Below, piece after piece: positions 40,461 through 59,911 of a stretch of DNA of 64,000 nucleotides; the first letter of the stretch is position 1, and each line of letters begins with the position of its first letter. A model generated the notes under the pieces. It was not told where the DNA came from. It was given only the letters and a program-made list of their open reading frames with translations, and searched no databases. The translations under genes were made by a program, and so were the position numbers. The stretch is taken from NCBI GenBank assembly GCA_964499695.1, contig CAZCMD010000002.1:5423-69422 (forward strand), written 5' to 3'. Source of the stretch: an uncultured Desulfatiglans sp. (GTDB taxonomy: Bacteria; Desulfobacterota; DSM-4660; Desulfatiglandales; HGW-15).

Positions 40461-40935
40461 AACCATTGTGAAAGGGAATAGAATTATTAAGGCGTTTAAC
40501 AATAAAACAGGTTTAGCGCATAAAGGGCTGTTAATTAATTCCGCACTTTTAGCGGCTCTGCTTTGCTGCCTTTTATTTATCACTTCCTGCGGAGACAGCT
40601 CCAAAGGGGAAATCCAGAATTCTTCGCCTATAAAGGCCGGTCAAAAACTTCCCAGGCTTCTTGACCTGGGTTCCGGCACCTGTATTCCATGCAAGATGAT
40701 GGCTCCTATCCTTGATGAGCTTTCAGCAAAATATAAAGGTGTTTTTGATGTTGAATTTATTGATGTAAGGGATGAACAAAGCAGGCCCCTTATTGATTTA
40801 TATAGAATAAGGGCAATCCCAACCCAGATATTTCTGGATTCCAATGGAAAGAAACTGTGGAGGCATGAAGGTTTTATTTCAAAGGATGATATCCTTAACA
40901 AATGGAAAGAGCTTGGATACTCATTCAAAATATAA
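40441..40935 (+). CDS. Thioredoxin-fold lipoprotein (CxxC = CIPC)
   Basis: ATG at 40441 (AAGGAG upstream) overlaps the RND gene end. Lipobox FITSCG. …GSGTCIPCKMMAPILDEL… It is a paralogue of the 56383-56775 product. Confidence 0.7.
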   Translation: MPQIKIKTIVKGNRIIKAFNNKTGLAHKGLLINSALLAALLCCLLFITSCGDSSKGEIQNSSPIKAGQKLPRLLDLGSGTCIPCKMMAPILDELSAKYKGVFDVEFIDVRDEQSRPLIDLYRIRAIPTQIFLDSNGKKLWRHEGFISKDDILNKWKELGYSFKI

Positions 40936-40953
40936 AGATGCATCTAAATTCAT

Positions 40954-41742
40954 ATGATTAATTTCCCGGACATCAGCCCATATATTTTAAAAATCGGCCC
41001 CTTCCAGTTGAGATGGTACGGCCTTATGTACCTGCTTGGGTTTCTGGCTGCATATTTCCTGATAAAATATCAGGAGAAAAAGAGGCCTGTTGGCCTGACT
41101 ACTCCCTTGATTCATGACCTCCTGTTTTATCTCATACTGGGGCTAATGGCAGGTGCAAGACTCGGATATATCCTTTTTTACCAACACATGAATTTAATGG
41201 ATTATGTTTTAAATCCTGTTGAGATCATAGCGGTCTGGCATGGAGGCATGTCCTTTCATGGCGGGCTTTTGGGCACAATTGCTGCCGGATTGCTGTTTGC
41301 GAATAAAAACAGATTCTCATTCTGGAAAATAGCTGACCGGGTAATTCTTGCAGCGCCTATCGGCCTTGGTCTAGGCAGGATCGGAAATTTCATAAATGGA
41401 GAACTCTATGGCCGCGTTTCAGATCTGCCATGGGCTATGGTATTCCCGGATGGAGGCCCTCTGGCCAGGCACCCATCTCAACTATATGAAGCATTTTTCG
41501 AAGGACTTGTATTGTTTCTGATACTGTTCTGGTTAAGCATGAAGAAAATACCGGGAGGTTTTCTTCTGGGCGTATTTTTTCTAGGATATGGGATGTTTCG
41601 TTTTTGTATAGAATTTTTCAGAGAACCGGACGAACAGATAGGCTTTATCCTGGAGCATTTATCAATGGGGCAGATACTTTGTATTGTTATGGTTGTTCTT
41701 GGAATCTTTATCTTATTATTAAAAACAGGAAAAAGAAAATAA
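40954..41742 (+). CDS. lgt: Prolipoprotein diacylglyceryl transferase
   Basis: …LRWYGLMYLLGF…HGGLLG…GRIGNFINGELYGR…HPSQLYEA…. Confidence 0.9.
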   Translation: MINFPDISPYILKIGPFQLRWYGLMYLLGFLAAYFLIKYQEKKRPVGLTTPLIHDLLFYLILGLMAGARLGYILFYQHMNLMDYVLNPVEIIAVWHGGMSFHGGLLGTIAAGLLFANKNRFSFWKIADRVILAAPIGLGLGRIGNFINGELYGRVSDLPWAMVFPDGGPLARHPSQLYEAFFEGLVLFLILFWLSMKKIPGGFLLGVFFLGYGMFRFCIEFFREPDEQIGFILEHLSMGQILCIVMVVLGIFILLLKTGKRK

Positions 41743-41958
41743 GATGAGATTGCAGTTTAATTTTTTTTTTAAATAAGCCACAGGAATTCACAGAGGTTTG
41801 TATAAATCCCCTGCTTTAATATCACCTCTTGTGTGTGTCGAAAACCTTTTAAAGGAAAGCGCCATTTTATCGAGCTTTTAAATTTACACAAAATGTTTTA
41901 TACTATTTCATTTCATGGTAGGTATCGATTTACTTAATGGTCAGGAAGGAAGGATATA

Positions 41959-43242
41959 ATGTTGTCCAGATTATTTCCGCTAGATATCAAACTGAGAAGC
42001 TACATTCCATATTCAACATTTGAAAGAATACCTCTAAAAATCCCAATATACCTGATTATCTTCTTTAACATTCTTGGGAGCTTCTCGTTTCAGAGCTGCT
42101 CTTCAGAAGGAAGCAAGAATGAGTATAAAACAATTCGAGCTGCTAAGCAAACCTTCTCCCTTACAGTTACCGCCCTTGGTACAGTTAAACCTCAGGTAGG
42201 CGCGGAGGTGCGCCTTGGCTCTCGCATATCCGGTAAAGTCGAGCACCTTCGTGCCAATGTAGGCAATTTTGTAGAGAAAGGACAGATCATTGCAGAGATT
42301 GAAAAAGATGAATTAAAGGCGACTGTCGAAAAGCAGCAGGCTTTGCTGAGCATTGCCGAAATCAATCTTACAACAAGGACAACACTAGGCCCTGTAGTAA
42401 TAGAGAAGGCCGAAGCCGATTTAAATCAATTCAGGTCGATCTATGAACTGAAAGCTATAGAATATGAAAGGGAAAAGATCCTTTTTGATGAAAATTACAC
42501 ATCCAAGCAGGTTTTCGACCAGTCAAGTGAGGCCCTCTTAGTGGCTAAGGCTCAGTTTGAGGCTAGTTCCAAAACGCTGGAGTTGGCAAGAAATACGCTC
42601 AATGAAGATTTAAAATTACTAAACGCTGAGGTTGAAAGTGCTCGGGCTTCTGTGAAAATCTCTGAGGCGGCATTGTTGTACGCAACCTTGCGTGCCCCTA
42701 TTTCAGGAATTATTGCCTCTGTCTCAACGCAAGAAGGTGAAACTGTAGCCGCAGGTTTAAACGCACCCACATTTGTGACAATTATTGATCTTGATCGACT
42801 TCATGTTGAGGCGTATATAGATGAGATCGATATCGGCAAGATCAAGATTGGCCAGAAGGCCTCATTTACGGTTGAGGCTTTTCCTTCAATTGACATAGAG
42901 GGAGAGGTTGTTGGGATATATCCAGAGGCAATTCTCAAAGAAAATGTTGTTTTCTACAATGTTATGATTAAGAGCATGAAATCTTCTTCAGTTGATCTCC
43001 GGCCGGAAATGACTGCTAATGTTTCAATATTCCTCGAATCTCGCGAGGATGTTCTTGTAATAACAGCGAGTTCCGTTAAAAAATCGGGGGGTGTCAACTT
43101 TGTATATTTAATGGAGAATGGAAAACCGATAAGACGTGAGGTGAAAATTGGCTGGAAACAGGGTCGCTTCCTGGAAATAACAGAGGGTCTTAATGAAGGG
43201 GATGAGGTGCTTGAAGATCAAAGCGCCTTTGAAGGAGGATAA
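41959..43242 (+). CDS. MacA/HlyD-family periplasmic adaptor
   Basis: Lipoyl, coiled-coil and barrel pattern (…LGSRISGKVEHL…LRAPISGIIASV…). Possible lipobox SFQSCS. Confidence 0.8.
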   Translation: MLSRLFPLDIKLRSYIPYSTFERIPLKIPIYLIIFFNILGSFSFQSCSSEGSKNEYKTIRAAKQTFSLTVTALGTVKPQVGAEVRLGSRISGKVEHLRANVGNFVEKGQIIAEIEKDELKATVEKQQALLSIAEINLTTRTTLGPVVIEKAEADLNQFRSIYELKAIEYEREKILFDENYTSKQVFDQSSEALLVAKAQFEASSKTLELARNTLNEDLKLLNAEVESARASVKISEAALLYATLRAPISGIIASVSTQEGETVAAGLNAPTFVTIIDLDRLHVEAYIDEIDIGKIKIGQKASFTVEAFPSIDIEGEVVGIYPEAILKENVVFYNVMIKSMKSSSVDLRPEMTANVSIFLESREDVLVITASSVKKSGGVNFVYLMENGKPIRREVKIGWKQGRFLEITEGLNEGDEVLEDQSAFEGG

Positions 43243-43244
43243 TA

Positions 43245-44465
43245 ATGACCCGAATAATACGAATTACCAGAGAATCATTTCGGATGGTGAGAAACAACAG
43301 GGTCCGGGGATTCATTATGATCCTGGGCATAGCAGTTGGAGTTGCTTCCCTCACAATGACGATCTGTGTGAGTCAGGGTGTGTATGAAAAAGTAATGGAC
43401 ACTGTCAACAAGCAGGGGCTGGATCTGATACAGATACGGCCTGGTTCGGACAAATTTACCGGGGCTCCTTCGGGCAGCAGGGATGTTGTATCACTAGTCG
43501 AGGAGGATGTCGATGTTATCCGCCAACACGTTGGAAATATTGTAGCTATCTCGCCCGTAAAAGACCGCAAGGAAATTGAGGTAAAATATGGAGATAAGTT
43601 CACCTTCACCAGGGTATTCGGTGTTACTCCGATATGGGCGCAGATCCGTGATTTTGACGCAAATAAAGGAAGCTTCATATCCGAGGAAGACATGTCTTTT
43701 TCTGCAAGGGTATGCCTCATCGGACAGATTGTAAAAAAGACCCTGTTCGGCGATGCTGATTCAATCGGTCAAACAATCAAAATCATGGATGTCCCGTTCA
43801 CTGTCAAGGGAGAACTAGAGACAAAAGGAACAGGCGCTGAAGGGAGGGATCGGGACGACCGTATCATCATCCCAATTACTACTTACACAAACAGACTCTT
43901 CAGAGATATTCCTCTGACACAGATAGTTGTTACCGTGAAGGATACCGACAAACTCAACAAGACTGTCAAAGATATAAGCGCCGTGCTTCGCGAACGCCAT
44001 AAGATCTCCCCCGGTGAATCGGATGATTTTGCCATGAGAACTCCCCAGGACCTTATCGACATGACCTATGGCGCCTCTCGATCCTTGTTACATGTGCTGA
44101 TGGTAATCGCCGGAATAACTTTACTGATCGCTGGCATTATGATTATGAACATAATGCTTGCATCTGTTTCCGCGAGAAGGAGTGAAATAGGAGTTCGCAG
44201 GGCGCTTGGTGCGCGGAAGAATGATATACTCCGCCAATTTATAATAGAGTCTCTCCTCATCTCATTAATGGGGGGCATATTAGGAACTATCCTGGGATAC
44301 AGCGGTTCTATTATACTTTCGAGCATGAACGTAGCTGCAAGCAATCTTACACCCCTGGCTTTTGCAGCCGCCATTGTATCATGCAGTCTCATTGCGGTTA
44401 TTTTCGGAATATACCCTGCAAGGAAGGCGGCAAACCTTAATCCTGTCGACATTTTGAGAGGTTAG
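43245..44465 (+). CDS. ABC transporter permease, MacB/FtsX type (1 of 2)
   Basis: MacB_PCD-like periplasmic domain and a C-terminal FtsX 3-TM module (…GVRRALGARKNDILRQF…). Confidence 0.85.
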   Translation: MTRIIRITRESFRMVRNNRVRGFIMILGIAVGVASLTMTICVSQGVYEKVMDTVNKQGLDLIQIRPGSDKFTGAPSGSRDVVSLVEEDVDVIRQHVGNIVAISPVKDRKEIEVKYGDKFTFTRVFGVTPIWAQIRDFDANKGSFISEEDMSFSARVCLIGQIVKKTLFGDADSIGQTIKIMDVPFTVKGELETKGTGAEGRDRDDRIIIPITTYTNRLFRDIPLTQIVVTVKDTDKLNKTVKDISAVLRERHKISPGESDDFAMRTPQDLIDMTYGASRSLLHVLMVIAGITLLIAGIMIMNIMLASVSARRSEIGVRRALGARKNDILRQFIIESLLISLMGGILGTILGYSGSIILSSMNVAASNLTPLAFAAAIVSCSLIAVIFGIYPARKAANLNPVDILRG

Positions 44466-44486
44466 TGAGAAAGTGAGGGACGAAGC

Positions 44487-45149
44487 ATGATCAATATAAA
44501 AGACATTGAGAAAACCTATATAAAGACTTCTGTCGAAACCCATGTACTGCGCGGTGTAACCTTTTCTATTCAGCGCGGGGAATATGTGGCAATCATGGGA
44601 GCATCAGGTTCCGGCAAATCCACACTTATGAACATTATCGGTTGCCTCGATAAGCCTACGAATGGCCAGTTTGAACTGGACAACATTAATGTATTACAAC
44701 TGGACGATGATGCCCTTTCCGCGCTGAGGAACAAAAAGTTCGGGTTTGTATTCCAGCAGTTTTTTCTTTTGGAACGAACCACTGTGCTTGATAACGTTCT
44801 CTTACCGCTTATCTACACAGACAAATACCCTACTGATGCGATGCAACACGCTATGAAACTTCTGGCCAAAGTTGGACTGGAAGACAGGATGCAATATTAT
44901 GCCAATGAATTGTCTGGGGGGCAACAACAAAGGGTAGCTATCGCTAGATCCCTGATCAATGATCCTGATATAATTCTGGCTGATGAGCCAACCGGCAATC
45001 TTGATTCGGAGAACGCGGCCGAAATCGTGGAAATTTTCAGTCGTCTTCATAAAGAGGGACGAACTATCATCGTTGTGACGCATGATCGGGCGGTAGCTGA
45101 GCATGCGCAACGAATACTGGAACTCAAAGATGGACAGCTAAAGGGATAA
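44487..45149 (+). CDS. ABC transporter ATP-binding protein (MacB/LolD type)
   Basis: Walker [10 protein letters not shown], signature [13 protein letters not shown], Walker [12 protein letters not shown]. Confidence 0.9.
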
Positions 45150-45204
45150 AGCACATTATCTGTGATTTTTTTGAGTTTCTTTGTAAGATAAACTCAATAG
45201 CAGA

Positions 45205-46443
45205 TTGTCAATCCCGGAGATTTTCTTGAAAATATCAAAAAACATCACCTTATCATGTAAGCTCCTTGCCGTTCATAAATTACGCACTGCCCTGTGTATG
45301 TCAAGCATGACCATAGGGGTCGCGGCCGTAATAGTTATGGTGTCCATGGGACGAGGTGCACAAAAACACGTGCTTGATATGATCCGCGATATGGGCACTA
45401 ACTTGATTGTAGTGAATGCAGGACATGTTACCCTTGTTGGTGGTCGGGAGACCCAGACAGCGATCGTTACTTCATTGCAAATCACGGATGCTGATGCCAT
45501 AAAGTCTCAGTGTGCATCTGTTGTCGATGCGGCTCCAGAGACCAGCAGCAAAATGAGTGTACAGTGGGAATCGGAAAATCTAAAAACAGAGATTGTTGGA
45601 GCTACTCCATCTGCTTTTCGGATACGCAATATAGAGATAGCAAAAGGTCGTGCATTCGATGAGGTAGATAATGATACAGCCCAGAGAGTCGCAATCATCG
45701 GTGAAGTGATCGTTGAAAAAATATTCCATGGCGAAAATTCTATTGGATATCTAATACGAATCGGCGGCGCGCTCTTCGAAGTTGTGGGAGTTATGAAAGC
45801 AAAAGGGATAGATGCCAATGGAGTGGATCGGGATGATAGAATTCTCATCCCGTTAAATACTGCGATGCATCGGCTTATACGCACTACCTTCATACAAAGG
45901 ATACACATCCAGGTCACAGATTCTACGCAATTGAAAAGTGCCGAGACCGAAATAAGAGAGTTGTTGCGTGAGAGGCACAGACTGCGTGACAAACCTGATG
46001 ACTTCACTATTCAGAACCAGGCAACCCTGATAGAGTCAGAGAGAGAATCCTCTCGCGTCTTGTCTCTTTTAGTTGCAAGTGTTGCCGCAATATCGCTTCT
46101 TGTTGGTGGTATTGGGATTCTTGCGGTCATGCTTACAGTAGGCCGGGAGAGAAGGCAAGAAATTGGATTACGCCGAGCCATTGGCGCCCGTCGACGTGAC
46201 ATTCGAACCCAGTTCCTGCTGGAATCTCTCATTATTGCCGGACTGGGCGGATTTTTTGGAGCTTTCTTCGGAATGCTCTCGACCTTTCTCGCCTCGAAGA
46301 TTGGTAATTTGCCTGCGGTTCAATCATGGGACGCAATGGGTGCGGGATTGACTCTTTCATTTATTATTGGGCTGATTTTTGGAATTTATCCTGCTTCCAA
46401 GGCTGCGACATTAGAGCCTATCGAGGCACTAAGAGCCGAATGA
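45205..46443 (+). CDS. ABC transporter permease, MacB/FtsX type (2 of 2)
   Basis: TTG start. Same architecture as 43245-44465 (…GLRRAIGARRRDIRTQF…). Confidence 0.85.
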   Translation: MSIPEIFLKISKNITLSCKLLAVHKLRTALCMSSMTIGVAAVIVMVSMGRGAQKHVLDMIRDMGTNLIVVNAGHVTLVGGRETQTAIVTSLQITDADAIKSQCASVVDAAPETSSKMSVQWESENLKTEIVGATPSAFRIRNIEIAKGRAFDEVDNDTAQRVAIIGEVIVEKIFHGENSIGYLIRIGGALFEVVGVMKAKGIDANGVDRDDRILIPLNTAMHRLIRTTFIQRIHIQVTDSTQLKSAETEIRELLRERHRLRDKPDDFTIQNQATLIESERESSRVLSLLVASVAAISLLVGGIGILAVMLTVGRERRQEIGLRRAIGARRRDIRTQFLLESLIIAGLGGFFGAFFGMLSTFLASKIGNLPAVQSWDAMGAGLTLSFIIGLIFGIYPASKAATLEPIEALRAE

Positions 46444-46858: not shown

Positions 46859-47179
46859 TTATTTCCCCGGTTTATTCTTAAACCATCCCCTGTCTGAGTA
46901 ATATTTTATTACAGCTTCTCTGAGGGATTGAAATGGGTGATCCTGCATTGCAGAAACAGAGATATTTTGCCATTGATTTTCTGCTGTTTGATCAGAATGA
47001 AAATTTTGGCTTACCAAAAAATCATATGCCTGTTGAATCTCTTTGAATCTTTCTTCTGCCTCAGGATTGTCCGGATTTTTATCAGGATGATATTTCATGA
47101 CCAGTCGCCGGTATGCCTTTTTTATCTCCTTTTTTGTTGCGTTTGGAGATATTCCTAAATGTCTATATGGATCATTCAC
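46859..47179 (-). CDS. J-domain (DnaJ-like) protein, 106 aa
   Basis: …[53 protein letters not shown]… (HPD motif). Confidence 0.85.
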
Positions 47180-47204
47180 TATATTTATCCGACTTTCGTA
47201 TTAT

Positions 47205-47972
47205 TTAAAAAATCCCCAAAAGTTTTAATACTATCTGTACCCCGAAAAACCACATGATGCACGCGAAGGCCACCTTGACGAATCCTGGGTTTGCCCTCAC
47301 TGTAATCTGAGATCCGATGGCAGAACCGAGTATGCATGCCAAGGCAGTAGCCGCAAGAAACCGAAGATCAACCTTACCAAGGGTAAAATGACCAATGGTT
47401 CCGATCAAAGAGCTGACAGTCACGATAAGCGAGTTGGCTCCAGCCGCCTTCTGAGCCCCGTATTTCATGAAAATAACAAGGAATGGAAAGATTATCAATC
47501 CACCCCCCACTCCGATAAGGCTGGACAAAACTCCGACACCAAAAGAAAAAAACAGTATAAATATGATCATCCCTGCATTAAGGGCCTTCACTTGCCGGGC
47601 AACCTTATCCTTACCGGAAATGAACAGGAGAAGGCCAGCGGCAAAAAGGAATGCAGAAAATATCCCAAGCAGCAGGTTTTTGGGGGCTATGCTGGAGAGT
47701 AACGCCCCAATAAATGAGCCTATTATTGTGCCTGGAAGAAAGACGAGACAAAAACGAAAGTCCACCAGCTTGTTCCGCTGAAATACAATTGTTGCAGTCA
47801 ACGCGGTCAGTAGGTTCAAAAAAAGCGCAGTGGATATTGCGGGCCCGACTGCCATACCTAGCATTATTAGGACAGGCGTGTAAAGCGACCCTCCTCCTTT
47901 CCCGAACATTGAAAAGACACCTGAAATTACCAAAATAGTGATAAAGCTGACAATAACTGATGACAGATTCAT
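47205..47972 (-). CDS. TauE/SafE (TSUP, DUF81) family anion exporter
   Basis: 255 aa with 8 TM segments. …GKGGGSLYTPVLIML… and …GVGGGLIIFPFLV… repeats. Confidence 0.8.
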   Translation of the reverse strand: MNLSSVIVSFITILVISGVFSMFGKGGGSLYTPVLIMLGMAVGPAISTALFLNLLTALTATIVFQRNKLVDFRFCLVFLPGTIIGSFIGALLSSIAPKNLLLGIFSAFLFAAGLLLFISGKDKVARQVKALNAGMIIFILFFSFGVGVLSSLIGVGGGLIIFPFLVIFMKYGAQKAAGANSLIVTVSSLIGTIGHFTLGKVDLRFLAATALACILGSAIGSQITVRANPGFVKVAFACIMWFFGVQIVLKLLGIF

Positions 47973-48016
47973 GACAGTTTACCTTTCAATGTCATGCACA
48001 AAACGCGAGCAACAGA

Positions 48017-48628
48017 TTAATTCTTATCTTCATAGCCGGAGCAGGGAATACATACCGGATTGCCTTCCGCTGTTTCCCTGATCTTGTTCACGAAGGTCAG
48101 CTCACCGCACTTTGAGCACCGCTTTGTTGTGAACACACCCTTGCCCTTTTTGATCTCCACCGTGTGAACCGGCCCCACCTGCAGAAAATCTTCTTCCTTG
48201 AGACCAAGAATGCGATTTACAAGCGGGTCAGTGATCTGTTGTTCAATGTCCTGAGGAGGAACCCCGGCCTTGCGCTTTTGAACAAACGGTGAGTTCAACG
48301 CCTTTTCAAAGAAGTCCGGCTTGAGTGACACACGCACCGCCCTGCCGGTTTTCTGGTCGATAAGGGTAAAGGCCATTTTATTATAATAACGTTTCTGGAT
48401 ATTGGACTTTCCATAGGTGCATCCTGTGGCGGTCATGATACCGTCCAGAAAGCAGCCGGCAGCATGGTCTTTGCCGGTTTCCGCATCAACGAAAAGCTCC
48501 TTGTCCTTTGACCTCTCCACACCGAGCGCTTTCATGGCTGCAAGCCCAGCCTTGAGCCCCATGGGCATGGCGGGGCATTTGTGGCCGTGAAACGCTAATC
48601 CAATCTCAAAAAGTTTTTCAAATTCCAT
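48017..48628 (-). CDS. FmdE-family protein with a C-terminal zinc ribbon
   Basis: …[12 protein letters not shown]… and a C-terminal CSKCGE…CIPC. Confidence 0.75.
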
Positions 48629-48651
48629 AGGTGTTCTCCTCTAAATAGTTA

Positions 48652-49917
48652 TTAATTTCCTGGTAATAGATCCGAAATACTTCCACCCATCAGGTAGAAA
48701 TAGGTGACAATCCAGTTGCAGAGTATTGTAACAATACCAAACAAAATATTTCCCACACTCATAAGCGCCCATCCTGAGAGGATATTACCTATGACACATC
48801 CACCTGCAAACGCAGCGCCTGCACCCAATAATATACCCCCTATAAATGCAACCAGTGTCTGAGATGGCGGCCTTGGTGTAAAGGTCAGAGTGCCTGAGAG
48901 TCTGCCTGAAACCCATGCGCCTATCATAAGACTTACAACAAGAAACAGCAACCAAAGGTTGATCTTTTTTGGCGCCGGGGTAGAAGGTGTAATTGGTTTT
49001 TCAGCAGCTGAGACCTGCCCGGTGGCTGTTGTTTGAGTTATAGCAGCAGGGTTTGTTTCAGACTTTTTGTAGACATATGTCGGGTTATTTTCAGTAAAGA
49101 TCTGCTGCATATGAAGAACACCGTGGGTCACACCCAGGGGATAATTTCTTCCTGTAGGGGCTGATGAGAGATAGGCAAACAATGCAAGGATGCCAATAGC
49201 AATACCGGCCTTCCAGGGTTTCCATGGGTGCGTGATCGTCCTTGATATTGCTCCTGTATCATCCTGTTTTAGTTTGCTCTGTTTTTTATTCTTTTTGTTG
49301 CTAATAATAATGCCAATTATCGTCAATACAGCAAAGATAGCTGCCAGCATCCAGTAGGGCATACCTGTAATGGATGATAAAGTAACAGGCCCGCCATCCT
49401 GTGTTTTAAGCACAAACCCGTTCATATATTTTTGTAAGCCATTAAGATAACCGAACTCCACAATGGATATCCCGAGTGGAATACCAATAAGACCGGCCAT
49501 TGAATTGATGTTACCGGCAGCAGATTTGAACAGGCACCCGCTTATACAGCCTCCGGCAAGCACTATGCCTGTACCAAAGAGCACCCCGCCAACAATATAG
49601 TTAAGATAGATAAAGGGTTTTGGTGACAATTTTATAATCCCCATAAGGTCAAATATGGCAAAAAGCGCCATGCTCACAACTATCGCTATCCAGAGACCAA
49701 GGGCCTTTGAGCGGTCTCGCATGAGAATAACTTCACTAATGGCGCTTGCACCGCACAACTCTCCTTTTTTCAGGAAAAACCCGAATAGAAAACCGACAGG
49801 GATAGCGGTTATTACCCATAGACGTGTATATATGGCAATCATGATAATAGCTGCCATTATTACAATACTTGCAATCGAATAACCTTTCCAGTTGATATCT
49901 CTTACTGCTGCTGACAT
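48652..49917 (-). CDS. YeeE/YedE-family sulfur(selenium)-compound transporter-like membrane protein
   Basis: Duplicated halves carrying conserved Cys motifs (…KKGELCGASAISE…, …AGGCISGCLFK…, …AGGCVIGNILSG…). Confidence 0.7.
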   Translation of the reverse strand: MSAAVRDINWKGYSIASIVIMAAIIMIAIYTRLWVITAIPVGFLFGFFLKKGELCGASAISEVILMRDRSKALGLWIAIVVSMALFAIFDLMGIIKLSPKPFIYLNYIVGGVLFGTGIVLAGGCISGCLFKSAAGNINSMAGLIGIPLGISIVEFGYLNGLQKYMNGFVLKTQDGGPVTLSSITGMPYWMLAAIFAVLTIIGIIISNKKNKKQSKLKQDDTGAISRTITHPWKPWKAGIAIGILALFAYLSSAPTGRNYPLGVTHGVLHMQQIFTENNPTYVYKKSETNPAAITQTTATGQVSAAEKPITPSTPAPKKINLWLLFLVVSLMIGAWVSGRLSGTLTFTPRPPSQTLVAFIGGILLGAGAAFAGGCVIGNILSGWALMSVGNILFGIVTILCNWIVTYFYLMGGSISDLLPGN

Positions 49918-49994
49918 TTGATCTCCTCCTTGTTAATATCGATTTTCATTCTGTCTACAGCCTATAGCCTAAAAAGCTACAGCCTCTTTCTCCA

Positions 49995-51272
49995 TCACGG
50001 ACATCTTATTATACCCTGCGCCCAGAGACATGCTCCGCAGGTGGGGTGTTTGTTACCGATGCAATCCTCCTCATTCTTTTCTGAAAGATCACAGCCCCCG
50101 CAGGTGATGCATGGTGAAAAATCAAAATCCATTACACGCTCTCTGAATGCCTTGTGTTCAGGGGTGTTCCACAGGTCATAGAGTTTTTTATCAACCACAT
50201 TGCCTATTGCCCATTTTTGAGAATGACGACTTCCATAATTAAGAAAGCCAAGGTACCCTTCATGGTTGTGCAGCAGGGGAAGACATGGGCTCAAGTCACC
50301 GTTCCAGGCAATTGCCCCGGCACTATCCTCGATAAAAGGGCAACGGTTTCGTAATTTCTCAGCAGATATGAATGGTATTGTCATGTGGATACTCTCTGCT
50401 GCCTTGCGTATTGCAGAAAGAGTGGCATCGTCCATATCCATTAGAGGCAGATCCAGGTCGAAACTATTCCTGTTTATTGACCTGTAATACATGGCCCCCT
50501 GAGTCATGCCTTCTGTATAAGGAAGCAGGTTCGTAACAAGCACACTGCTTGCCCCGATATTTTTACCGATATCTATTACAGCCGGTAATTCAGCTATGTT
50601 CCGTTTCATAGCAACAAAAGCAATACCTATTTTCATATGCTTTAAAAAGCCAAACCTGCCCCCCTTTTCGTTATTCATCCTGTTTAACATACTCAGGTTT
50701 TCAAGTATATTTGGCAGCTGGGCTCCCATTCGTATATCTGAAAAACTTTCTGGTGTTGCGCCGTCAAGAGATATCCACAGGGTATCAAGGCCCGATTCTA
50801 TCAGGGATTTTATCATCTCCTTTTTAAGAAGGGTCCCGTTTGTGATCAGCTCTGCTTTCATATTCATTGACTTGACGCGTGAAATCATGTCAATGATCCA
50901 CGGATGGGATAAAGGCTCACCGAAACCGCCAAAGAATATCTTTTCCGGTAATGCTGAAAATTCCATCAGCCCATCAAGTATAGCCTTAAAAACCCCTTCA
51001 GACATCATGCCCGGGGTTTCATCCCAGACATTCCTTATACAGGTGCGGCAATTGAGGTTACACTGATTTGTAACCTCAATGTAAAGTTTTGTGAGTCGCA
51101 TTGGAAGGCTCAAGGTTAAAGAGCTTCCCCTTTCTGAATATTTTACATGATCGCCAGGTTTTATTCCCAATCCAGCGGCAATTTTTGCAGGAATGATGAG
51201 GTTGCCTGATGAATCTGATTTTAAAAACTGATTTTGATCTTCTATTGTATTAAGTTTAGTACTGCTTTGCAT
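49995..51272 (-). CDS. Radical SAM / SPASM-domain protein with an N-terminal SpoVT/AbrB-like swapped-hairpin segment
   Basis: CNLNCRTC (CxxxCxxC). C-terminal Cys clusters (…NRCPFIEDSAGAIAWNGDLSPC…, …CITCGGCDLSEKNEEDCIGNKHPTCGACLWAQGIIRCP). The N-terminus …GNLIIPAKIAAGLGIKPGDHVKY… is AbrB-like. Confidence 0.8.
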   Translation of the reverse strand: MQSSTKLNTIEDQNQFLKSDSSGNLIIPAKIAAGLGIKPGDHVKYSERGSSLTLSLPMRLTKLYIEVTNQCNLNCRTCIRNVWDETPGMMSEGVFKAILDGLMEFSALPEKIFFGGFGEPLSHPWIIDMISRVKSMNMKAELITNGTLLKKEMIKSLIESGLDTLWISLDGATPESFSDIRMGAQLPNILENLSMLNRMNNEKGGRFGFLKHMKIGIAFVAMKRNIAELPAVIDIGKNIGASSVLVTNLLPYTEGMTQGAMYYRSINRNSFDLDLPLMDMDDATLSAIRKAAESIHMTIPFISAEKLRNRCPFIEDSAGAIAWNGDLSPCLPLLHNHEGYLGFLNYGSRHSQKWAIGNVVDKKLYDLWNTPEHKAFRERVMDFDFSPCITCGGCDLSEKNEEDCIGNKHPTCGACLWAQGIIRCP

Positions 51273-51437
51273 TTTAAAACACTTATATTATTTTTTATTG
51301 AACCCTGTATCCATATCTTAACAAATGACTTTATCTAGTAGTATACCAATCTTAAAGGTTCAATGCCTCTATCATCTGCCCGCGGCATAATTGCCCGGTT
51401 TATTAAAACAGATTATTTTTTATCATGATACTCATAA

Positions 51438-54086
51438 TCATTCGTTACTTTCAACCTCAGGATGATTTTCCTTTAACCATTTTCGGCTTACCTTTCCTCC
51501 AAATATACTGCGCATCGACTGAGGATTAACTATAGTGCTTAGATAAAGATGCGCTACAATCAGAATTAGGATTAACAATGCTGCCAGATCGTGAAGTGTA
51601 TAAAGCATAGCAAGATTGGTATTTATGTTATCCTTAAGTATAGCCAAAGAGACACCTGTGATGACCAGGAAAAAACCGCATGCGGCTATCATCCAGAATA
51701 ATATCTTCTGGCCTGCATTGAACTTGCCTGCAGGTTGTTCTCCGCGATAACCAAAATATCCACCCAGCGCCTTAAGCCACTTTTTGTCACTCTTGTTGAA
51801 AAGCATATCCCTGAACCAGATAAGCATCATCGCTATCCATGCTACACCAAATACAATGCCTATCCACATATGGAGGTTACGTGTCGGCATGCCATTTAGC
51901 CCCCGATTATTCTGTAAAAACAGTATGCCGGTTATTGCAAGGACAAGAAAAGCGGCGAGAGAAACATAATGTGCCAACCTTTCGGAGAGTGTGAATCGCA
52001 TAGTGAGGTCAGTCTCTTCGAGCGATGATCTAATGCTCCTCTGTCCATAGATCACAAAATGGAGCAACAAAACAAGTATCTCTATAAAAATTATCCAGAG
52101 ATTAGCGGGTTTTAAAATGGCCTCCCTGAACGAGCCAAGCCAGGCCTCAAGTGAAGTGATGCCCAGAATCGCATAGTTGGGTATCCATTCAGGTTGAGCA
52201 TCAGTACCAGTGAACAGTGCATCAAGAATAGCCCCATTAAAAAAGGCAGAGTCTCTGCTATGGCAATCAATACAGCCCCCTGACCCCAAAGCTGCCTTTG
52301 AGGGTGCAATATCATGAGAAAACTTATAAACCGATGCATATGCAGTAGCCTCATACTCCTCACGGTGAAGCTCTCTGACCTCTGTTGATGAAAAATATGC
52401 CTTGCTATCTGATACCCATACCAGCCGACGATTCTCAAGAGGAAAAGATGTTGCTGTAAGATAATCCTTTGTCGCTGTAAGTAGAGCCTCTATTTCCTCA
52501 TCACGATTAACCTCAATAATACCGTCCTTATTGTCGTCTGTTATCTTTGAAAGTTCAGGATATTTTTTTCCCGGATCTGCCTGATGTTGCGCCCACATCT
52601 GGTAAAAGTCCTTCATAAAAAGCTGGTTCAGCCCGGTCTTGCCTTGTTCTTCAAATCCAACCCATGAGCTGTGGACACGGTTAGCAGGGAAAATTTTACC
52701 CTTGTATCTTATAAGAGTGGGCCGGGTTATGTCAGTCGGCTGATCTTTGTTAGTAAATAGTTCCAGTTCCCCATAGTGGTTCCAAAAGTTCATCTCCTGG
52801 TCATAAAATGTCCATATGTGTTTCCCGGCAGGGTTAATCCTTGGCGCTGGGTTATAAACATCACTGGCCTGAACTAATGCGCTTTTTACTGAACGTGCCG
52901 GTATATGGCATGCCTGGCATGATATTTTATCTAGGTGCAGATCAGGAAGCCAGTCATGCCTTGCACGCGGGGCATTACCCCATCCTTCTATATGACATCT
53001 CTCACATGATCGAACCGTATTATCAAGGTCATTGCGGACAGAACCGGACGGGTCATCACCCTTCCCTATCTGGTGCACCTCTTTACCTCGGATTATCGGG
53101 TCAGCAGCATCGCTGCCAGCCGTATGGCAATCCACACAACGAAGTCCGGCAGCCATGTGGATATCCGTGCGGGTAGAGAATGAAGCCCCTCGCTTTTTCC
53201 AGCCAGGTTTGGCATGACATTTAAGACAGGTCTCATTTCGCGGTTCAGGAGTCATATGCAGCATGACATTGCCTTCGGCATCAAACCTGCTTTTATCATA
53301 GGAAATGGTTGGTTTTTCACCTGTGTTTACTTTTCCAATTATCTCCCCTAAACCTGCCCCTGCCGTCGCGGCCCAGCGAAAGTTCAGGTTGGCAAGCTCT
53401 TTGTTTCGTTTTGTATAGTCATACTCAGGCATATGACATAGAAGACAATCTGCCTCGATCACGCCAGTCTCTGCCCAACGCGCCTTGAAATAATCGCCAT
53501 CAAAATTATTCTCTCCGCCAGAGACCAGGCCTGATGCGGGATCTTGCATATTTATGTCATAGCGTTTGCCGTCACGGTCATACTCAAGAGGCCCTCCTCC
53601 TGGATGGCAATTACCACAGGAGGCGGTCACAAATTCAAAGGAGGTCATATCAATTATGCGTGCGTTTGTGTTATTTTTAGAGGCAAGCTGCCGATAAAGG
53701 GGAGCAGGTGAGCACCAGTTTCCGCCATAATTTCCGGGCGAACTTACCCAGTTGTAGCGTTTGGCCATGGCATCAGGGACTTTCTCCCCCTTACCCTGAG
53801 TAAAGTGAAAACCCTCGGTGATTTTTTCATAGTTGTGACATCCGCTAACACCGCAGGTCTGCTTGGGGGAATATGGTACAGTATCGTTTATACCTTTAAC
53901 AGGGTCAATTATATTTCCAGCCTCATCGCGTAGTTGAAAAGGTGGGCAGACATCAATGGCCTGGGGCACATCTTCATCATTAGAGGAATGATTACGAGTT
54001 TCTCCTATAGTCACATCAGGACTTACTCCCGCAAATAACATTATCATAAGGCCAATGCTTATAAAAGAAGTATAAATATATTTCAT
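51438..54086 (-). CDS. Fusion cytochrome: periplasmic octahaem c-type domain plus C-terminal FdnI/HydC-like b-type membrane domain (CbcL-like)
   Basis: Seven CxxCH motifs (SCGNCH, DCLLCH, TCLKCH, RCVDCH, SCERCH, SCQACH, GCIDCH) plus one CX4CH (CGVSGCH). The last 250 aa or so carry 4-5 TM helices with conserved His residues. I preferred the ATG at 54086 (GAGGGGG upstream). Confidence 0.8.
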   Translation of the reverse strand: MKYIYTSFISIGLMIMLFAGVSPDVTIGETRNHSSNDEDVPQAIDVCPPFQLRDEAGNIIDPVKGINDTVPYSPKQTCGVSGCHNYEKITEGFHFTQGKGEKVPDAMAKRYNWVSSPGNYGGNWCSPAPLYRQLASKNNTNARIIDMTSFEFVTASCGNCHPGGGPLEYDRDGKRYDINMQDPASGLVSGGENNFDGDYFKARWAETGVIEADCLLCHMPEYDYTKRNKELANLNFRWAATAGAGLGEIIGKVNTGEKPTISYDKSRFDAEGNVMLHMTPEPRNETCLKCHAKPGWKKRGASFSTRTDIHMAAGLRCVDCHTAGSDAADPIIRGKEVHQIGKGDDPSGSVRNDLDNTVRSCERCHIEGWGNAPRARHDWLPDLHLDKISCQACHIPARSVKSALVQASDVYNPAPRINPAGKHIWTFYDQEMNFWNHYGELELFTNKDQPTDITRPTLIRYKGKIFPANRVHSSWVGFEEQGKTGLNQLFMKDFYQMWAQHQADPGKKYPELSKITDDNKDGIIEVNRDEEIEALLTATKDYLTATSFPLENRRLVWVSDSKAYFSSTEVRELHREEYEATAYASVYKFSHDIAPSKAALGSGGCIDCHSRDSAFFNGAILDALFTGTDAQPEWIPNYAILGITSLEAWLGSFREAILKPANLWIIFIEILVLLLHFVIYGQRSIRSSLEETDLTMRFTLSERLAHYVSLAAFLVLAITGILFLQNNRGLNGMPTRNLHMWIGIVFGVAWIAMMLIWFRDMLFNKSDKKWLKALGGYFGYRGEQPAGKFNAGQKILFWMIAACGFFLVITGVSLAILKDNINTNLAMLYTLHDLAALLILILIVAHLYLSTIVNPQSMRSIFGGKVSRKWLKENHPEVESNE

Positions 54087-54128
54087 TTTACCCCCTCTTT
54101 TAAAAACCATTTTCTGAAACACAGTATC

Positions 54129-54557
54129 CTACCTGCCAAGCTCTTCCTCTAGATTTTCCACAAATGCCTTTATCTCATTCCTTACCCTTCTGTAATTGTT
54201 CAATGCCTTCTCCTCATCCTTTTCACCTTCAGAAAGCCTTGGCGGATCATCAAAACCCCGGTGCATCAATTTTGTCTTTGCAGGGAAATAGGGACATGCC
54301 TCATGGGCATTGTCACAAAGGGTTACCACATAATCAAATTGCATATCTCCGAGTGAATCTATATCTTTTGATTTCTGACCTGATATATCTACCCCTGCTT
54401 CAGACATTACCTTCACAGCTCTGGGGTCAACCCCTTTTGGAGATATCCCGGCAGAGTATGCATTGAATTTAATCTTTTGCAGATAATTTGTCCACCCTTC
54501 TGCCATCTGGCTTCTGCATGAGTTCCCAGTACATAGGAAGAGTATCTTTTTAGGCAT
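54129..54557 (-). CDS. arsC: Arsenate reductase, LMW-PTP / thioredoxin-coupled type
   Basis: MPKKILFLCTGNSCRSQMAEGW… with downstream TLC…EACP cysteines. The ATG lies 1 nt after the acr3 stop. Confidence 0.9.
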   Translation of the reverse strand: MPKKILFLCTGNSCRSQMAEGWTNYLQKIKFNAYSAGISPKGVDPRAVKVMSEAGVDISGQKSKDIDSLGDMQFDYVVTLCDNAHEACPYFPAKTKLMHRGFDDPPRLSEGEKDEEKALNNYRRVRNEIKAFVENLEEELGR

Positions 54558-54558
54558 G

Positions 54559-55659
54559 TTAACCCTCACACCTCACATGACACACACCTGTCAGTGTTTT
54601 AACTTCATATGGGAAATATTTTCTTTTTAACCATAATGCCACATTAACCAGTGCAATCAGTACAGGTACTTCAACAAGCGGCCCAATGACAGCGGCAAAT
54701 GCCTGCCCTGAGTTAATACCGAATACTGCTACTGCAACGGCAATGGCCAGTTCAAAATTGTTGGATGCCGCAGTAAAGCTTAAGGTTGTTGACTGCTCGT
54801 ATGTGGCCCCCGCCTTCATGGAAAGGAAGAAAGAGGCAAAAAACATTATTACAAAATAGATACAGAGCGGAATAGCAACCCGAATCACATCCATTGGGAG
54901 CTGAACAATATATTCGCCTTTAAGGGAGAACATGACCAGTATGGTAAACAATAGTGCAATCAGTGTAATGGGGCTGATCTTTGGGATGAATTTTTTCTCA
55001 TACCATTCCTTTCCTTTTGTATTAAGACCTATAACACGTGTAATAATGCCCGCAATAAAGGGAATACCGAGGTAGATAAATACACTTTCGGCTATCTGAC
55101 CGATTGATATATTAACAACAATACCCTTTAATCCAATCCACTGTGGTACAACAGTTATAAAGATGTAGGCATACAATGAAAAGAAGAGCACCTGGAATAT
55201 TGAATTGAACGCAACAAGACCGGCACAGTATTCGGTATCGCCTGATGCGAGTTCATTCCAGACTATAACCATTGCTATACATCTTGCGAGGCCAATTAGT
55301 ATCAGCCCAACCATGTACTCATGGTGCCCTGATAAAAAGGCGATTGCCAGCAGAAACATCAGGATTGGCCCTATAACCCAGTTCTGCACGAGCGAAAGAA
55401 CAAGTACCCTGATATTTTTGAATACACTGCCAAGCTGTTCGTATTTGACCTTTGCGAGAGGCGGATACATCATCAATATAAGACCTATCGCTATTGGTAT
55501 ATTGGTTGTTCCAACCTGAAAGATATTAATGACATCTTTAATTTTCGGAAACAGATATCCTGAAAAAACCCCAATTATCATTGCTGCAAAAATCCACAGC
55601 GTAAGGAACCTGTCAAGAAAAGAGAGTCTTTTAGTAATTGATCCACTCATTTTATTCAC
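54559..55659 (-). CDS. acr3: Arsenite efflux permease, ACR3 family
   Basis: …[21 protein letters not shown]…[22 protein letters not shown]…. Confidence 0.9.
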
Positions 55660-56359
55660 CTATAAATGGTTTAACAATAAAATAGAGACCCAACAGGATG
55701 ATAACTACACCTGCCCCCCTTCTAAACCATCTCCCGGTACCCTGCCACCTGCTGTTTTCCATTATACTTTTAACAAACCCGGTTGAGCTCCCTGCAATAA
55801 CAATGGGCAGACAATGGCCTATAGCAAAAAGGATTATGTAAATAATGCCAACAATGATCTTTTGCTGCACAGTAATAATGGCAAGCACAGGGGCAATAAA
55901 TCCAAAGGTGCAGGAGCCTGAAAGAATGCCATATGCAAGCCCTAAACCCAGTGCCCCAAGAAATCCCCTGAAGTTTAATTTATACAGCAGGCTGCCGGAT
56001 GCGGAGCATTTATCTACCCCGAGCATACCAAGTGCAATCCATATCAGAATAATTCCAATAATAACCTGCCAGTAATTACCTATATCTCCAAGCATCCTGC
56101 CAAGAAAGGCGCATATGATACCCACAAGAGCTATAGAGATAAAAAGTCCGGTGGAAAATAATAAAGAATATATGGCTGCCTTCCGGGGTGTTAAAAGGGT
56201 CTCCTGGCCCCCTACATATGCAACTATAAGAGGTATTGATGCCAGGTGACAGGGGCTGAACAGAACGCTTATCACACCCCACAGAAAACAACCCAGTGCC
56301 GCTATTGCAGGGCCTGCTGTTATCCATTCATTAACAGTAAGGAAAAAAGAATCAAACAT
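55652..56359 (-). CDS. ccdA: CcdA/DsbD-type transmembrane thiol-disulfide electron transporter
   Basis: …[16 protein letters not shown]… and …[13 protein letters not shown]… (two essential TM cysteines). Confidence 0.8.
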
Positions 56360-56382: not shown

Positions 56383-56775
56383 TTATTTTTCAACACCCAT
56401 TTTAGCAAGCTGGGCTACAATATCCTTTTCACTCATGAACCCGATGTGTCTGAAGACCTCTTCTCCACTTGGGTTAAAGAATACCTGGGTGGGAAGAGCC
56501 CTTAATTTGTATACATATTGCTGTTCAGGATCATCAAGGAGATTTATAAAAACAATGGCGGCCTTTCCCTCATAACTAGTTTTGAGTTTTTCCAGTATCG
56601 GAGACATCATTTTGCATTGAGTGCAGGTTTTTTTACCAAGTGCGACCATTGTCACCATACCCTTGACAGGAAGGTTTTTTAGGAATTCCTCATGCTCTTC
56701 AGCAGGCGTTTTACCTGATACAATTCCTGGCACAATAAGAATGGCTATAAGTATTGTAATTAATAAAGACTTCAT
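56383..56775 (-). CDS. Periplasmic thioredoxin-fold protein (TlpA/ResA-like, CxxC = CTQC)
   Basis: ATG at 56775 with GGAGG upstream. Signal peptide. …KKTCTQCKMMSPILEKL… It is a paralogue of the 40441-40935 product. Confidence 0.75.
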   Translation of the reverse strand: MKSLLITILIAILIVPGIVSGKTPAEEHEEFLKNLPVKGMVTMVALGKKTCTQCKMMSPILEKLKTSYEGKAAIVFINLLDDPEQQYVYKLRALPTQVFFNPSGEEVFRHIGFMSEKDIVAQLAKMGVEK

Positions 56776-56791
56776 TTTTATCCTCCACAAA

Positions 56792-57583
56792 TTATTTAAC
56801 AGCCTGTATATAAGCAGAGAAAACCAAGTTTTCAGCCCCTTTGGCCACATTCCAACTACTGATTATTTCATGACTCTTAGGTTTATTTATAATTGTTTTT
56901 TCTTTAAACCCATTGTCTGTAAGAATTTTTTCCACCTCACCGGGTGAAATAGCCCCGGACACTCAGCCAGTGTAGGCTTCAGGATCATTCAGAACCTGCG
57001 CTGGCAGATCTCCTGATCGTAATACATCAGAGATAATCATCCTTCCACCAGGTTTAAGGGCGCGGAATATCTCACCGAACACCCTGTTTTTATCGGGTGA
57101 AAGATTAATTACACAGTTGGATATTACCACATCAACAGAGCTGTCAGGTACGGGCAGTTCTTCTATTTTTCCCCACCTGAAATCAACATTCTTAAAATTT
57201 AATTTTTGAGCGTTTTCTTTGGCCCGTTCAACCATTTCGGGGGTCATGTCCACGCCAATCACCTTTCCTGATTCACCCACAATCCTTGCTGCAAGAAATG
57301 CATCAAACCCGGCGCCGCTTCCCAAATCCAGTACTGTTTCACCGGGTTTGAGTTTTGCCTGGCTTAATGGATTTCCGCATCCAAGCCCCAGGTTTGCCTC
57401 ACCGGGGGCAAGACGAAGCTCTTCATCAGTGTAATCAAGGGCCCTGCCTAGTTCTTCAATAGAGATATCCTGCCCTGTTTCTCCGCAGCATGAAGAACAG
57501 GCAATGCCACCTGATTTAGCAATATCAGAGTATTTTTTAATTACAATCTGATGAATTTTTTCTTTTTGTATTTCAATGCCCAT
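56792..57583 (-). CDS. arsM: Arsenite S-adenosylmethionine methyltransferase (ArsM-like) with in-frame UGA (56965-56963) read as selenocysteine, Sec207
   Basis: The ORF track stops at …NDPEAYTG(TGA). My hand translation continues in frame: VSGAISPGEVEKILTDNGFKEKTIINKPKSHEIISSWNVAKGAENLVFSAYIQAVK, ending at TAA 56794-56792. The upstream part carries the ArsM cysteines (CSSCC, GLGCGNP, SNCVINL) and the SAM motif VLDLGSGAG. The UGA sits where ArsM has the conserved G-C-(V/L)-(A/S)-GA cysteine. The extension closes an otherwise 187-nt gap to the next gene, leaving 16 nt. Confidence 0.7.
56924..56962 (-). promoter_or_regulatory. Candidate bacterial SECIS hairpin(s) immediately 3' of the UGA
   Basis: The mRNA reads UGA GUGUCCGGGGCUAUUUCACCCGGUGAGGUGGAAAAAAUU. 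Alternative 1 is CCGGG/CCCGG (5 bp, 9-nt loop). Alternative 2 is UUUCACC/GGUG(G)AAA with apical loop CGGUGA (containing GGU) starting 20 nt after the UGA. Confidence 0.4.
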
Positions 57584-57992: not shown

Positions 57993-58226
57993 TTATTGTT
58001 GTATCCAACCTTTGATCTCATCCTTGGTTGGTATCTTTCCTACGCTTTTTACCTTGCCATCCACAACAATAGCAGGTGTCCCGAACACACCGTGTTTAGC
58101 TATCTCAAGGGTGTCAGTGATTTTTTCAACATTTACATTTATTCCTGCCTCTGCCACGGCATCCATCACGTTTTTCATGGTAGCCTCGCATCTTTTACAT
58201 CCCGGTCCTAATACCTTTATTTCCAT
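57993..58226 (-). CDS. Thioredoxin-family 'redox-active disulfide protein 2' (Thioredoxin_3)
   Basis: MEIKVLGPGCKRCE…GVFGTPAIVVDGKV… 77 aa. Confidence 0.85.
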   Translation of the reverse strand: MEIKVLGPGCKRCEATMKNVMDAVAEAGINVNVEKITDTLEIAKHGVFGTPAIVVDGKVKSVGKIPTKDEIKGWIQQ

Positions 58227-59897: not shown

Positions 59898-59911
59898 TCG
59901 TATCTCCACAT

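Follow-up and report, generated by a model that had tools for sequence, protein, structure and literature searches.

Among the determinants of arsenic resistance (ars) operons, thioredoxin and DsbD_TM/CcdA-like proteins have already been named (Castillo & Saier 2010, PMC2963123). The same set of genes forms the upstream two-thirds of an ars island in the DNA analysed here, a 64,000-nucleotide stretch (64 kb, hereafter the window) of contig CAZCMD010000002.1 from an uncultured Desulfatiglans sp. Behind this set five genes continue on the same strand, encoding (i) a radical S-adenosylmethionine (SAM) enzyme with a SPASM domain; (ii) a YeeE-like membrane protein; (iii) an FmdE protein; (iv) a TauE/SafE permease and (v) a J-domain protein. 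In contrast to the upstream set, none of the five is among the determinants named by Castillo and Saier. Radical SAM, TauE and YeeE proteins are mentioned neither in that work nor in a transporter survey (PMC4435449) or a review of ars distribution (PMC6205960), and FmdE is unmentioned in PMC2963123. According to the review, mechanisms of resistance to thioarsenates and methylated thioarsenicals are expected ('should exist') but had been neither identified nor verified. No paper tying a SPASM-type radical SAM enzyme, FmdE, TauE or YeeE to ars operons was found in searchable full text, which leaves many subscription journals outside, and a prior description is possible. The island is of a known type; its accessory determinants are uncharacterised yet widely conserved.

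Single parts of the locus resemble described systems. ArsL and ArsS are known arsenic-related radical SAM enzymes (PMC8552651) and share with the window enzyme a place within an ars gene cluster. The latter differs in being of the SPASM type and of another subfamily, and no NCBIfam or Pfam model for ArsL or ArsS occurs among its matches listed (for NCBIfam, the best 25 of 64). Its nearest model is TIGR04317, a tungsten-cofactor maturase whose annotation is context-based and for which a literature search found no experimental paper. The YeeE/YeeD pair (TsuA/TsuB; PDB 6LEO, 8J4C) has in common with the window YeeE the fold family and three Cys of the thiosulfate pathway. In the window protein, by contrast, the two halves are set apart by about 40 inserted residues, a YeeD/TusA partner is absent, the TsuA cut-offs are not reached and the gene is embedded in ars islands. 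TauE shares Pfam membership with the TauE/SafE (TSUP) exporters of sulfite and sulfonates and is set apart from them by its pairing with FmdE in ArsR-controlled islands. The metallochaperone-pump system ArsD-ArsA/ArsB offers an analogy of function only: in both cases the gene of a small cytosolic Cys-rich protein stands directly 5' of that for an efflux permease within an ars island. The sequences of the two systems are unrelated.

The five genes and their probable place in the ars island

All five genes are located on the (-) strand, in the following order: the radical SAM/SPASM gene (49995-51272; 425 amino acids with an AbrB-like N-terminus), YeeE-like (48652-49917; 421 amino acids), FmdE with a C-terminal zinc ribbon (48017-48628; 203 amino acids), TauE/SafE (TSUP) anion permease (47205-47972; 255 amino acids) and a J-domain-only protein with an HPD motif (46859-47179; 106 amino acids). 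The gaps between them are, in this direction, 77, 23, 44 and 25 nt. The arrangement had been described in an earlier note on this DNA and is borne out by the open reading frames (ORFs), while Pfam agrees with every domain call: Radical_SAM 53.3 bits, SPASM 40.3, Sulf_transp 195.4, FmdE 105.2 (cut-off 22.9), TauE 134.7 over residues 10-246 (cut-off 32.6) and DnaJ 85.8. The first protein combines a CX3CX2C motif with a Cys-rich SPASM region, both Pfam matches being above cut-off, and FmdE carries the HGHxCP motif in addition to its zinc ribbon.

These genes end a run of fifteen genes on one strand, ArsR-ArsP-Trx3-DGC-ArsM-Trx-DsbD-ACR3-ArsC-cytochrome-rSAM-YeeE-FmdE-TauE-DnaJ (Trx, thioredoxin; Trx3, Thioredoxin_3; rSAM, radical SAM), extending from ArsR (59957) to the J-protein (46859). 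ArsR, the As(III) efflux permeases and ArsC are contiguous on the strand of the five genes, and the same linkage is found in relatives. Because the radical SAM enzyme, YeeE and FmdE-TauE have each been built separately and repeatedly into ars islands, the five genes are probably the distal accessory part of one extended island for arsenic resistance and transformation, of the type found in anaerobes. The earlier note had located them correctly, directly downstream of the ars genes; they are more probably a portion of the island than its neighbour. Its interpretation is partly supported. The stand-alone module for sulfur or selenium, or for a molybdenum or tungsten (Mo/W) cofactor, that it had proposed does not hold, for the selenium YedE models score low, the window contains no tungsten oxidoreductase of the AOR family and the units are linked to ars genes separately.

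The string is best described as three independently mobile units, namely the AbrB-rSAM-SPASM enzyme, the YeeE-like channel and the FmdE-TauE pair, joined by a lineage-specific J-protein. Among 80 radical SAM loci described below, FmdE occurs in 6 and YeeE in 2, so that the enzyme and FmdE-TauE do not travel together. The complete five-gene string recurs in close Desulfatiglandales relatives only, and the test of neighbourhood conservation that had been suggested for the module thereby speaks against it. What the data show directly is the order of the genes, the families to which they belong and, for every unit, a linkage to ars genes that extends across phyla.

A gap of 165 nt separates the radical SAM gene from the cytochrome fusion gene upstream. 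A search of the gaps flanking the radical SAM gene revealed no same-strand ORF of at least 20 amino acids, and none of precursor-peptide size in the 165 nt, and the other gaps are too short for a YeeD or TusA gene; with the annotated neighbours this agrees with the earlier statement that a TusA/YeeD partner and a precursor peptide are absent. By consensus matching only, (i) the 165-nt gap contains no strong terminator-like site; (ii) the region has its best sigma-70-like match where ArsR begins (59929-59957); (iii) a second one is placed directly 5' of the radical SAM gene (51425-51454); (iv) a weak terminator-like hairpin follows about 290 nt past the J-protein gene. An Rfam scan of the window returned no RNA family.

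The radical SAM/SPASM family and its genomic contexts

TIGR04317 is the best model for the window enzyme over the whole rSAM-SPASM core, including the Cys-rich C-terminus, with 294.8 bits against a cut-off of 380. The maturase subfamily named in the earlier note is therefore the nearest one, whereas its cut-off is not reached. The same is true of ten more family members, six of them AOR-linked and four ars-linked, which score 268-316 bits. A search with the protein gave more than 5000 matches, and the best 120 of these share one architecture of about 420 amino acids at 46-100% identity. In an alignment of 20 members the CX3CX2C motif (C71/C75/C78) is invariant, nine C-terminal Cys are conserved and a conserved N-terminal domain is present. 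In the window enzyme this N-terminal extension comprises about 55 residues with a weak match to SpoVT/AbrB (PF04014), a domain detected in 12 of the 20. One family member, P0033 (477 amino acids, 55% identity), possesses an additional N-terminal HTH_11 domain, which suggests that the extension is a recognition or DNA-binding element.

The genomic context was sampled by scanning one genome per GTDB species, and 80 loci (numbered with L) were kept of 230 relatives. Six-frame ORFs of these loci were searched with the window proteins, all ORFs were also clustered without prior labels, and the labels were checked with Pfam. The loci come from at least eight phyla, including Asgard archaea; their sources are Desulfatiglans (80% identity), Zixibacteria, Desulfobacterales, Dehalococcoidia, Anaerolineae, Syntrophaceae, Acidobacteriota, Spirochaetia, Christensenellaceae, and Heimdall- and Promethearchaeota. 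ACR3, ArsP or ArsC is encoded within 10 kb of the radical SAM gene in 29 loci, and at least two other ars-island families are found near it in nine more, which gives an ars context in 38 of the 80. The most frequent neighbours are ArsR (31 loci), Thioredoxin_3 (29), ACR3 (24), an AOR-family tungsten oxidoreductase (22, at a median distance of 741 bp), a PF04060 FeS-domain protein (17), ArsP (15), thioredoxin and DsbD pairs (13 and 12, respectively), a GcvH-DGC-DGC-OsmC module (10), DGC (9) and an ArsM-like methyltransferase (9).

The AOR neighbours bear on a different explanation, in which the five genes serve a Mo/W cofactor: the radical SAM enzyme would be a maturase of the TIGR04317 type, FmdE an accessory of Mo/W enzymes, and the oxyanions or sulfur needed for cofactor synthesis would be transported by TauE and YeeE. 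The adjacency to ars genes would then reflect poisoning of dithiolene cofactors by As(III), or chance. Besides the top rank of TIGR04317, it is favoured by the 22 AOR-containing loci, of which 16 hold AOR alone and six hold AOR and ars genes together (these six being included in the 38), and by the interleaving of AOR- and ars-linked enzymes in a neighbour-joining tree. The name of FmdE, taken from operons of the molybdenum formylmethanofuran dehydrogenase, and one FmdE-TauE locus followed by an oxyanion importer (see below) point the same way. Against it, all tested members stay under the equivalog cut-off whether AOR- or ars-linked, ars linkage is commoner than AOR linkage (38 versus 22 loci), no AOR homologue exists in the whole 64-kb window, and AOR genes are found in none of 80 FmdE loci. 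Neither an Fmd nor another Mo/W-enzyme gene was detected among the scanned neighbours (about 40-64 kb of the window), and formylmethanofuran dehydrogenase structural genes are absent from these neighbours and from the 80 related FmdE loci. A Mo/W-cofactor module is accordingly considered unlikely.

Separate AOR-linked and ars-linked clades were considered and rejected, since the tree intermingles the two kinds and their TIGR04317 scores are similar; the window enzyme itself groups with the ars-linked Desulfatiglans copies. The AbrB-rSAM-SPASM family as a whole is thus sister to TIGR04317, and its genes have two alternative settings, ars islands and AOR loci. It is distinguished from the TIGR04317 family by its lower scores, in most members by the extra AbrB-like domain, and by a mainly ars context.

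Two or three tandem paralogues of the enzyme per ars island are encoded in eight loci (L045, L052, L054, L059, L069, L071, L076 and L081). In the tandem-paralogue loci the genes flanking the radical SAM gene often encode a secreted CxxC protein (about 169 amino acids, no Pfam match), DsbD_2 (upstream) and Thioredoxin_3 (downstream). A module of GcvH-like, DGC, DGC, OsmC and Thioredoxin_3 genes stands beside the radical SAM gene in L031, L041, L061, L063, L066, L068, L076, L081, L082 and L084, that is, in ars islands of ten species belonging to Chloroflexota, Acidobacteriota and 'delta proteobacteria'. A lipoyl-carrier-like protein in such an island deserves attention because dihydrolipoyl groups are classic targets of As(III). 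Two kinds of protein resembling those of corrinoid/Fe-S enzymes, the PF04060 protein of about 175 amino acids and a pair of CdhD and ferredoxin, are encoded repeatedly in such islands (L002, 12608-13987; L168, 9255-10640; 17 of the radical SAM and 11 of the FmdE loci). These neighbours hint at a corrinoid-dependent methyl transfer to or from arsenic.

The predicted structure of the window enzyme (predicted local distance difference test 68, predicted template modelling score 0.74) was compared with the PDB by Foldseek, which returned generic radical SAM, SPASM and twitch matches at TM-scores of 0.4-0.5. A sequence search of the PDB yielded only BtrN, GDGT-MAS, BlsE and PqqE. The fold matches include the peptide-modifying enzymes SuiB, SkfB, PqqE and ChlB, SPASM enzymes commonly mature peptides, and the AbrB-like N-terminus, or the HTH_11 domain of P0033, could be a recognition element. 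These points would suit a peptide-maturation cluster, of the type producing ribosomally synthesised and post-translationally modified peptides, in which the enzyme modifies a precursor and the adjacent membrane proteins export it. But the small-molecule enzymes BlsE, DesII, BtrN and viperin are equally among the fold matches, the flanks of the radical SAM gene lack a same-strand small ORF, neighbour clustering shows no conserved small ORF except Thioredoxin_3, and the transporters are not co-conserved with the enzyme. Such a cluster is thus extremely improbable. A role in anti-phage defence as a prokaryotic viperin was likewise discarded: PADLOC detected only a generic similarity of the radical SAM core to pVip (58 bits) and no match for the other four proteins.

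The YeeE-like protein, the FmdE-TauE pair and the J-protein

The YeeE-like protein falls well below the models of its described relatives. For TsuA it reaches 162.6 bits with NF052577 (cut-off 400) and 110 with NF041049 (cut-off 645), and for the selenium YedE/FdhT proteins it gives partial matches of 65.2 bits with NF033796 (cut-off 350) and 30.3 with TIGR04112 (cut-off 200). The motifs 'gelCgasa', 'laggCisg' and 'faggCvig' align to the Spirochaeta YeeE (PDB 6LEO) and retain three pathway Cys, which are presumably C22, C91 and C293 of that protein. The window neighbours of YeeE are the radical SAM enzyme and FmdE, and no TusA-like gene is present in the Pfam-labelled YeeE loci.

In the three near-identical Desulfatiglans arrangements (L002-L004, L007 and L013) YeeE is inside the ars island in all cases. 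Six further loci with 50-68% identity were sampled, of which five (L167-L170 and L172) are in ars islands and one (L171) is not. The Desulfatiglandales locus L167 has the order ArsR-ArsP-Trx3-Trx3-DGC-Trx-DsbD-FeS-ACR3-ArsC-YeeE-FmdE-TauE-DnaJ, the four-gene tail of the window without the radical SAM gene; the latter follows in the same genome after about 13 kb (L008). In other islands, YeeE-CdhD-Fer4 follows ArsC in L168, ArsR-ArsP-YeeE is found in L169, and in L172 YeeE is inserted between an RND pump and Trx3-DGC-DsbD. In relatives of the window the radical SAM or YeeE gene begins 11-14 nt past ArsC.

The same data allow judgement on a self-contained sulfur/selenium utilisation module, independent of arsenic, in which thiosulfate or selenium would enter through YeeE/YedE and the remaining proteins would process or export the products. 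Consistent with it are the retained Cys of the thiosulfate pathway, the export of sulfite or sulfonates by the TauE family, the DsrE and rhodanese genes of related islands, and the probable use of selenocysteine by the organism, to which an in-frame TGA in ArsM points. The low YedE and TsuA scores speak against it, as do the lack of a YeeD/TusA or YedF partner and the missing co-conservation of the five genes beyond close relatives. Moreover, ars islands, not sulfur-assimilation or sel clusters, surround YeeE in five of the six further loci and in every near-identical Desulfatiglans locus, and FmdE in about half of its longer contigs. This explanation is therefore highly unlikely.

FmdE belongs to a narrow subfamily: all 120 best matches are at least 74% identical and 201-203 amino acids long, with HGHxCP, H55, C59, C70 and a four-Cys ribbon invariant. 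The nearest solved structure is a Thermoplasma homologue (PDB 2GVI), matched over the full length with an E-value of 3e-34. From a metagenome scan 80 loci were kept of more than 530 relatives. In 62 of them the next gene 3' of FmdE, encoded on its strand at a median distance of 40 nt, is TauE; the exceptions are mostly contig ends. Other neighbours are DsbD_TM (25 loci), Thioredoxin_3 (22), thioredoxin (21), ArsR (19), ArsP (18), ACR3 (16) and CDF (16), and among the 40 contigs of at least 5 kb ACR3, ArsP or ArsC is encoded in 19. None of the 80 loci contains the radical SAM enzyme, YeeE or the J-protein. Pfam-labelled examples of FmdE in ars islands are L167, given above, and L174, with the order ArsR-Trx3-ArsP-Trx3-DsrE-FmdE-TauE-FeS-ACR3-DsbD.

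The two partners differ in conservation. Between lineages FmdE keeps an identity of 70-89%, whereas that of its TauE partner is often only about 30%: the TauE next to FmdE in L002 shares 77% with the window TauE, and outside the closest relatives the identity is 22-31%. A Rosetta-stone search among 1.84 billion representatives found no FmdE-TauE fusion. It did find a TrmO_N-FmdE fusion, tandem FmdE and a fusion of an FmdE N-domain with a chromate-transporter fragment (proteins including P0420 and P0508); this last, lone fusion may be a gene-call artefact.

The J-protein has only a J-domain, at residues 3-57, and no G/F region, zinc finger or C-terminal substrate-binding domains, and none of the DnaJ equivalog models comes near its cut-off, which from the sequence makes it a J-domain-only co-chaperone and not a DnaJ/Hsp40 protein of type I or II. 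Its orthologues, 59-67% identical including a distinctive C-terminal tail, are confined, among the loci examined, to four ars-island arrangements of Desulfatiglandales.

The proposed assignment to the island and the chemistry it may serve

Several points weigh against assigning the five genes to arsenic handling. Neither ars nor AOR genes are within reach of the radical SAM gene in 26 of the 80 loci, and these include L008-L011, whose enzymes are 70-73% identical to that of the window. As the query that retrieved the 80 loci as its best matches is itself ars-linked, ars contexts may be over-represented among them. The frequency of chance adjacency is an estimate, a few per cent at most (about 2% or less), derived from one to a few ars loci per typical genome, of which 20 kb makes up well under 1%. 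The fold search, in which peptide maturases and small-molecule enzymes are mixed, does not discriminate the type of substrate. Three of the FmdE Cys are present in 2GVI too and are thus a general feature of the family, not an adaptation to arsenic. In L173 the genes ArsR-FmdE-TauE are followed not by ars genes but by those of an ABC importer for oxyanions, of the Mod/Cys type and containing a TOBE domain. FmdE-TauE could also serve a metal other than arsenic, since CDF (Cation_efflux, divalent-cation) genes often come next (behind FmdE-TauE in 16 of the 80 loci, among L097-L165) and ArsR/SmtB regulators sense other metals and persulfides. Finally, all functional statements are drawn from gene neighbourhood.

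The loci L008-L011, where the closest relatives of the radical SAM enzyme have no adjacent ars genes, and the sigma-70-like site just 5' of the radical SAM gene would also agree with a chance juxtaposition of unrelated genes behind an ars operon. However, three families sampled independently and from different phyla show the same ars association, and in the window the gaps are tight and all genes share a single strand; chance is therefore very improbable.

The upstream part of the island, entirely on the (-) strand, begins with ArsR (59553-59957) as its head, followed by the ArsP permease (58331-59503), a small redox protein of the Thioredoxin_3 family (57993-58226), a DGC-domain protein (57591-57971) and an ArsM-like SAM methyltransferase (56792-57583; Pfam Methyltransf_31). 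Next come a secreted thioredoxin (56383-56850), a DsbD_TM/CcdA-like membrane protein (55652-56359), the arsenite efflux permease ACR3 (54559-55659), with 460 bits for TIGR00832 above the equivalog cut-off of 282.8, and a thioredoxin-type ArsC of the LMWP family (54129-54569), with 142 bits for TIGR02691 below the cut-off of 174. Between ArsC and the radical SAM gene, Pfam and NCBIfam identify a fusion of a multihaem cytochrome c and an FdnI-like cytochrome b (51438-54122; 894 amino acids). The same fusion protein recurs in L002-L004 and L007, there too within an ars island, and has weaker homologues in L071, L082 and L131.

The putative selenoprotein that the earlier note had placed in the ars island is this ArsM-like methyltransferase, which has an in-frame TGA at 56963-56965. 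Reading through it gives '...NDPEAYTG-TGA-VSGAISPGEVEKIL...', with the continuation VSGAISPGE. The position presumably corresponds to the site of the third conserved As(III)-binding Cys of ArsM enzymes. The window ArsM is hence a candidate selenoprotein, that is, a selenocysteine-containing ArsM. The RNA fold 3' of the TGA, examined for a selenocysteine insertion sequence, is not distinctive (z = -0.10).

The island is bordered by further transport genes. On the (+) strand a convergent cluster (34358-46443) encodes OEP, MFP, an RND pump of 1030 amino acids, a secreted thioredoxin, Lgt, MFP and two MacB proteins with an ABC ATPase between them, headed by a second ArsR-like gene (34358-34687). 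As RND/MacB pumps are also in or beside the ars islands of L002 and L172, this cluster may belong to the same regulon. Directly 5' of ArsR and on its strand lies the gene of a PHO4/PiT-family phosphate transporter of 758 amino acids (60066-62342, (-) strand), a possible entry route for arsenate.

Thiol-disulfide proteins (thioredoxin, Thioredoxin_3, DsbD, DGC, GcvH-like and OsmC) are abundant in the islands, sulfur-trafficking genes (DsrE, rhodanese, DoxX, CCG, YeeE and TauE) recur in them, and their hosts are sulfidogenic anaerobes. On these grounds it is proposed that the island may handle arsenic as As-S species in sulfidic habitats, and a sulfur flavour of the chemistry is plausible. Tentatively, the YeeE-like channel might move a thio-oxyanion, either thiosulfate as a supply of sulfane sulfur or its structural analogue monothioarsenate. 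Somewhat more tentatively still, FmdE could be a cytosolic Cys/His metal(loid)-binding partner of membrane exporters and TauE the anion exporter that it serves, a role suggested by its pairing with TauE and with CDF and by the single fusion to a chromate-transporter fragment. It is more doubtful that the radical SAM/SPASM enzyme would have as its target a protein or cofactor with an As(III)-sensitive group, for example a dithiol or dithiolene; such a target would account for the presence of the same family beside tungsten AOR genes elsewhere. The alternative that it would act directly on an arsenical is unlikely. The J-protein might recruit Hsp70 to arsenic-damaged or island-encoded proteins.

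Taken as a whole, an unrecognised sulfur-coupled arsenic pathway in the islands of anaerobes, in which YeeE and an FmdE-TauE chaperone-exporter would handle thio-arsenic oxyanions while the radical SAM enzyme carries out radical chemistry on an arsenical or in cofactor repair, is unlikely. The C-As lyase ArsI needs oxygen; within this pathway the chemistry on an arsenical might be, for example, an oxygen-independent cleavage or formation of C-As bonds. Repair would restore dithiol or dithiolene cofactors after poisoning by As(III) and would also explain the AOR linkage.

In paddy soils and in sediments that are sulfidic and anoxic, arsenic largely takes the form of thioarsenates and methylated thioarsenicals. 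Four families, the radical SAM/SPASM enzyme, the YeeE-like protein, FmdE and TauE, are repeatedly found in ars islands of anaerobes, among them Desulfobacterota, Chloroflexota, Acidobacteriota and Asgard archaea, and are clonable candidates for thioarsenic transport and for anaerobic, arsenic-linked radical chemistry. A common radical SAM family ties these arsenic islands to the tungsten AOR enzymes. If the sulfur-coupled pathway is true, YeeE and FmdE-TauE would be the missing determinants of thioarsenate resistance.

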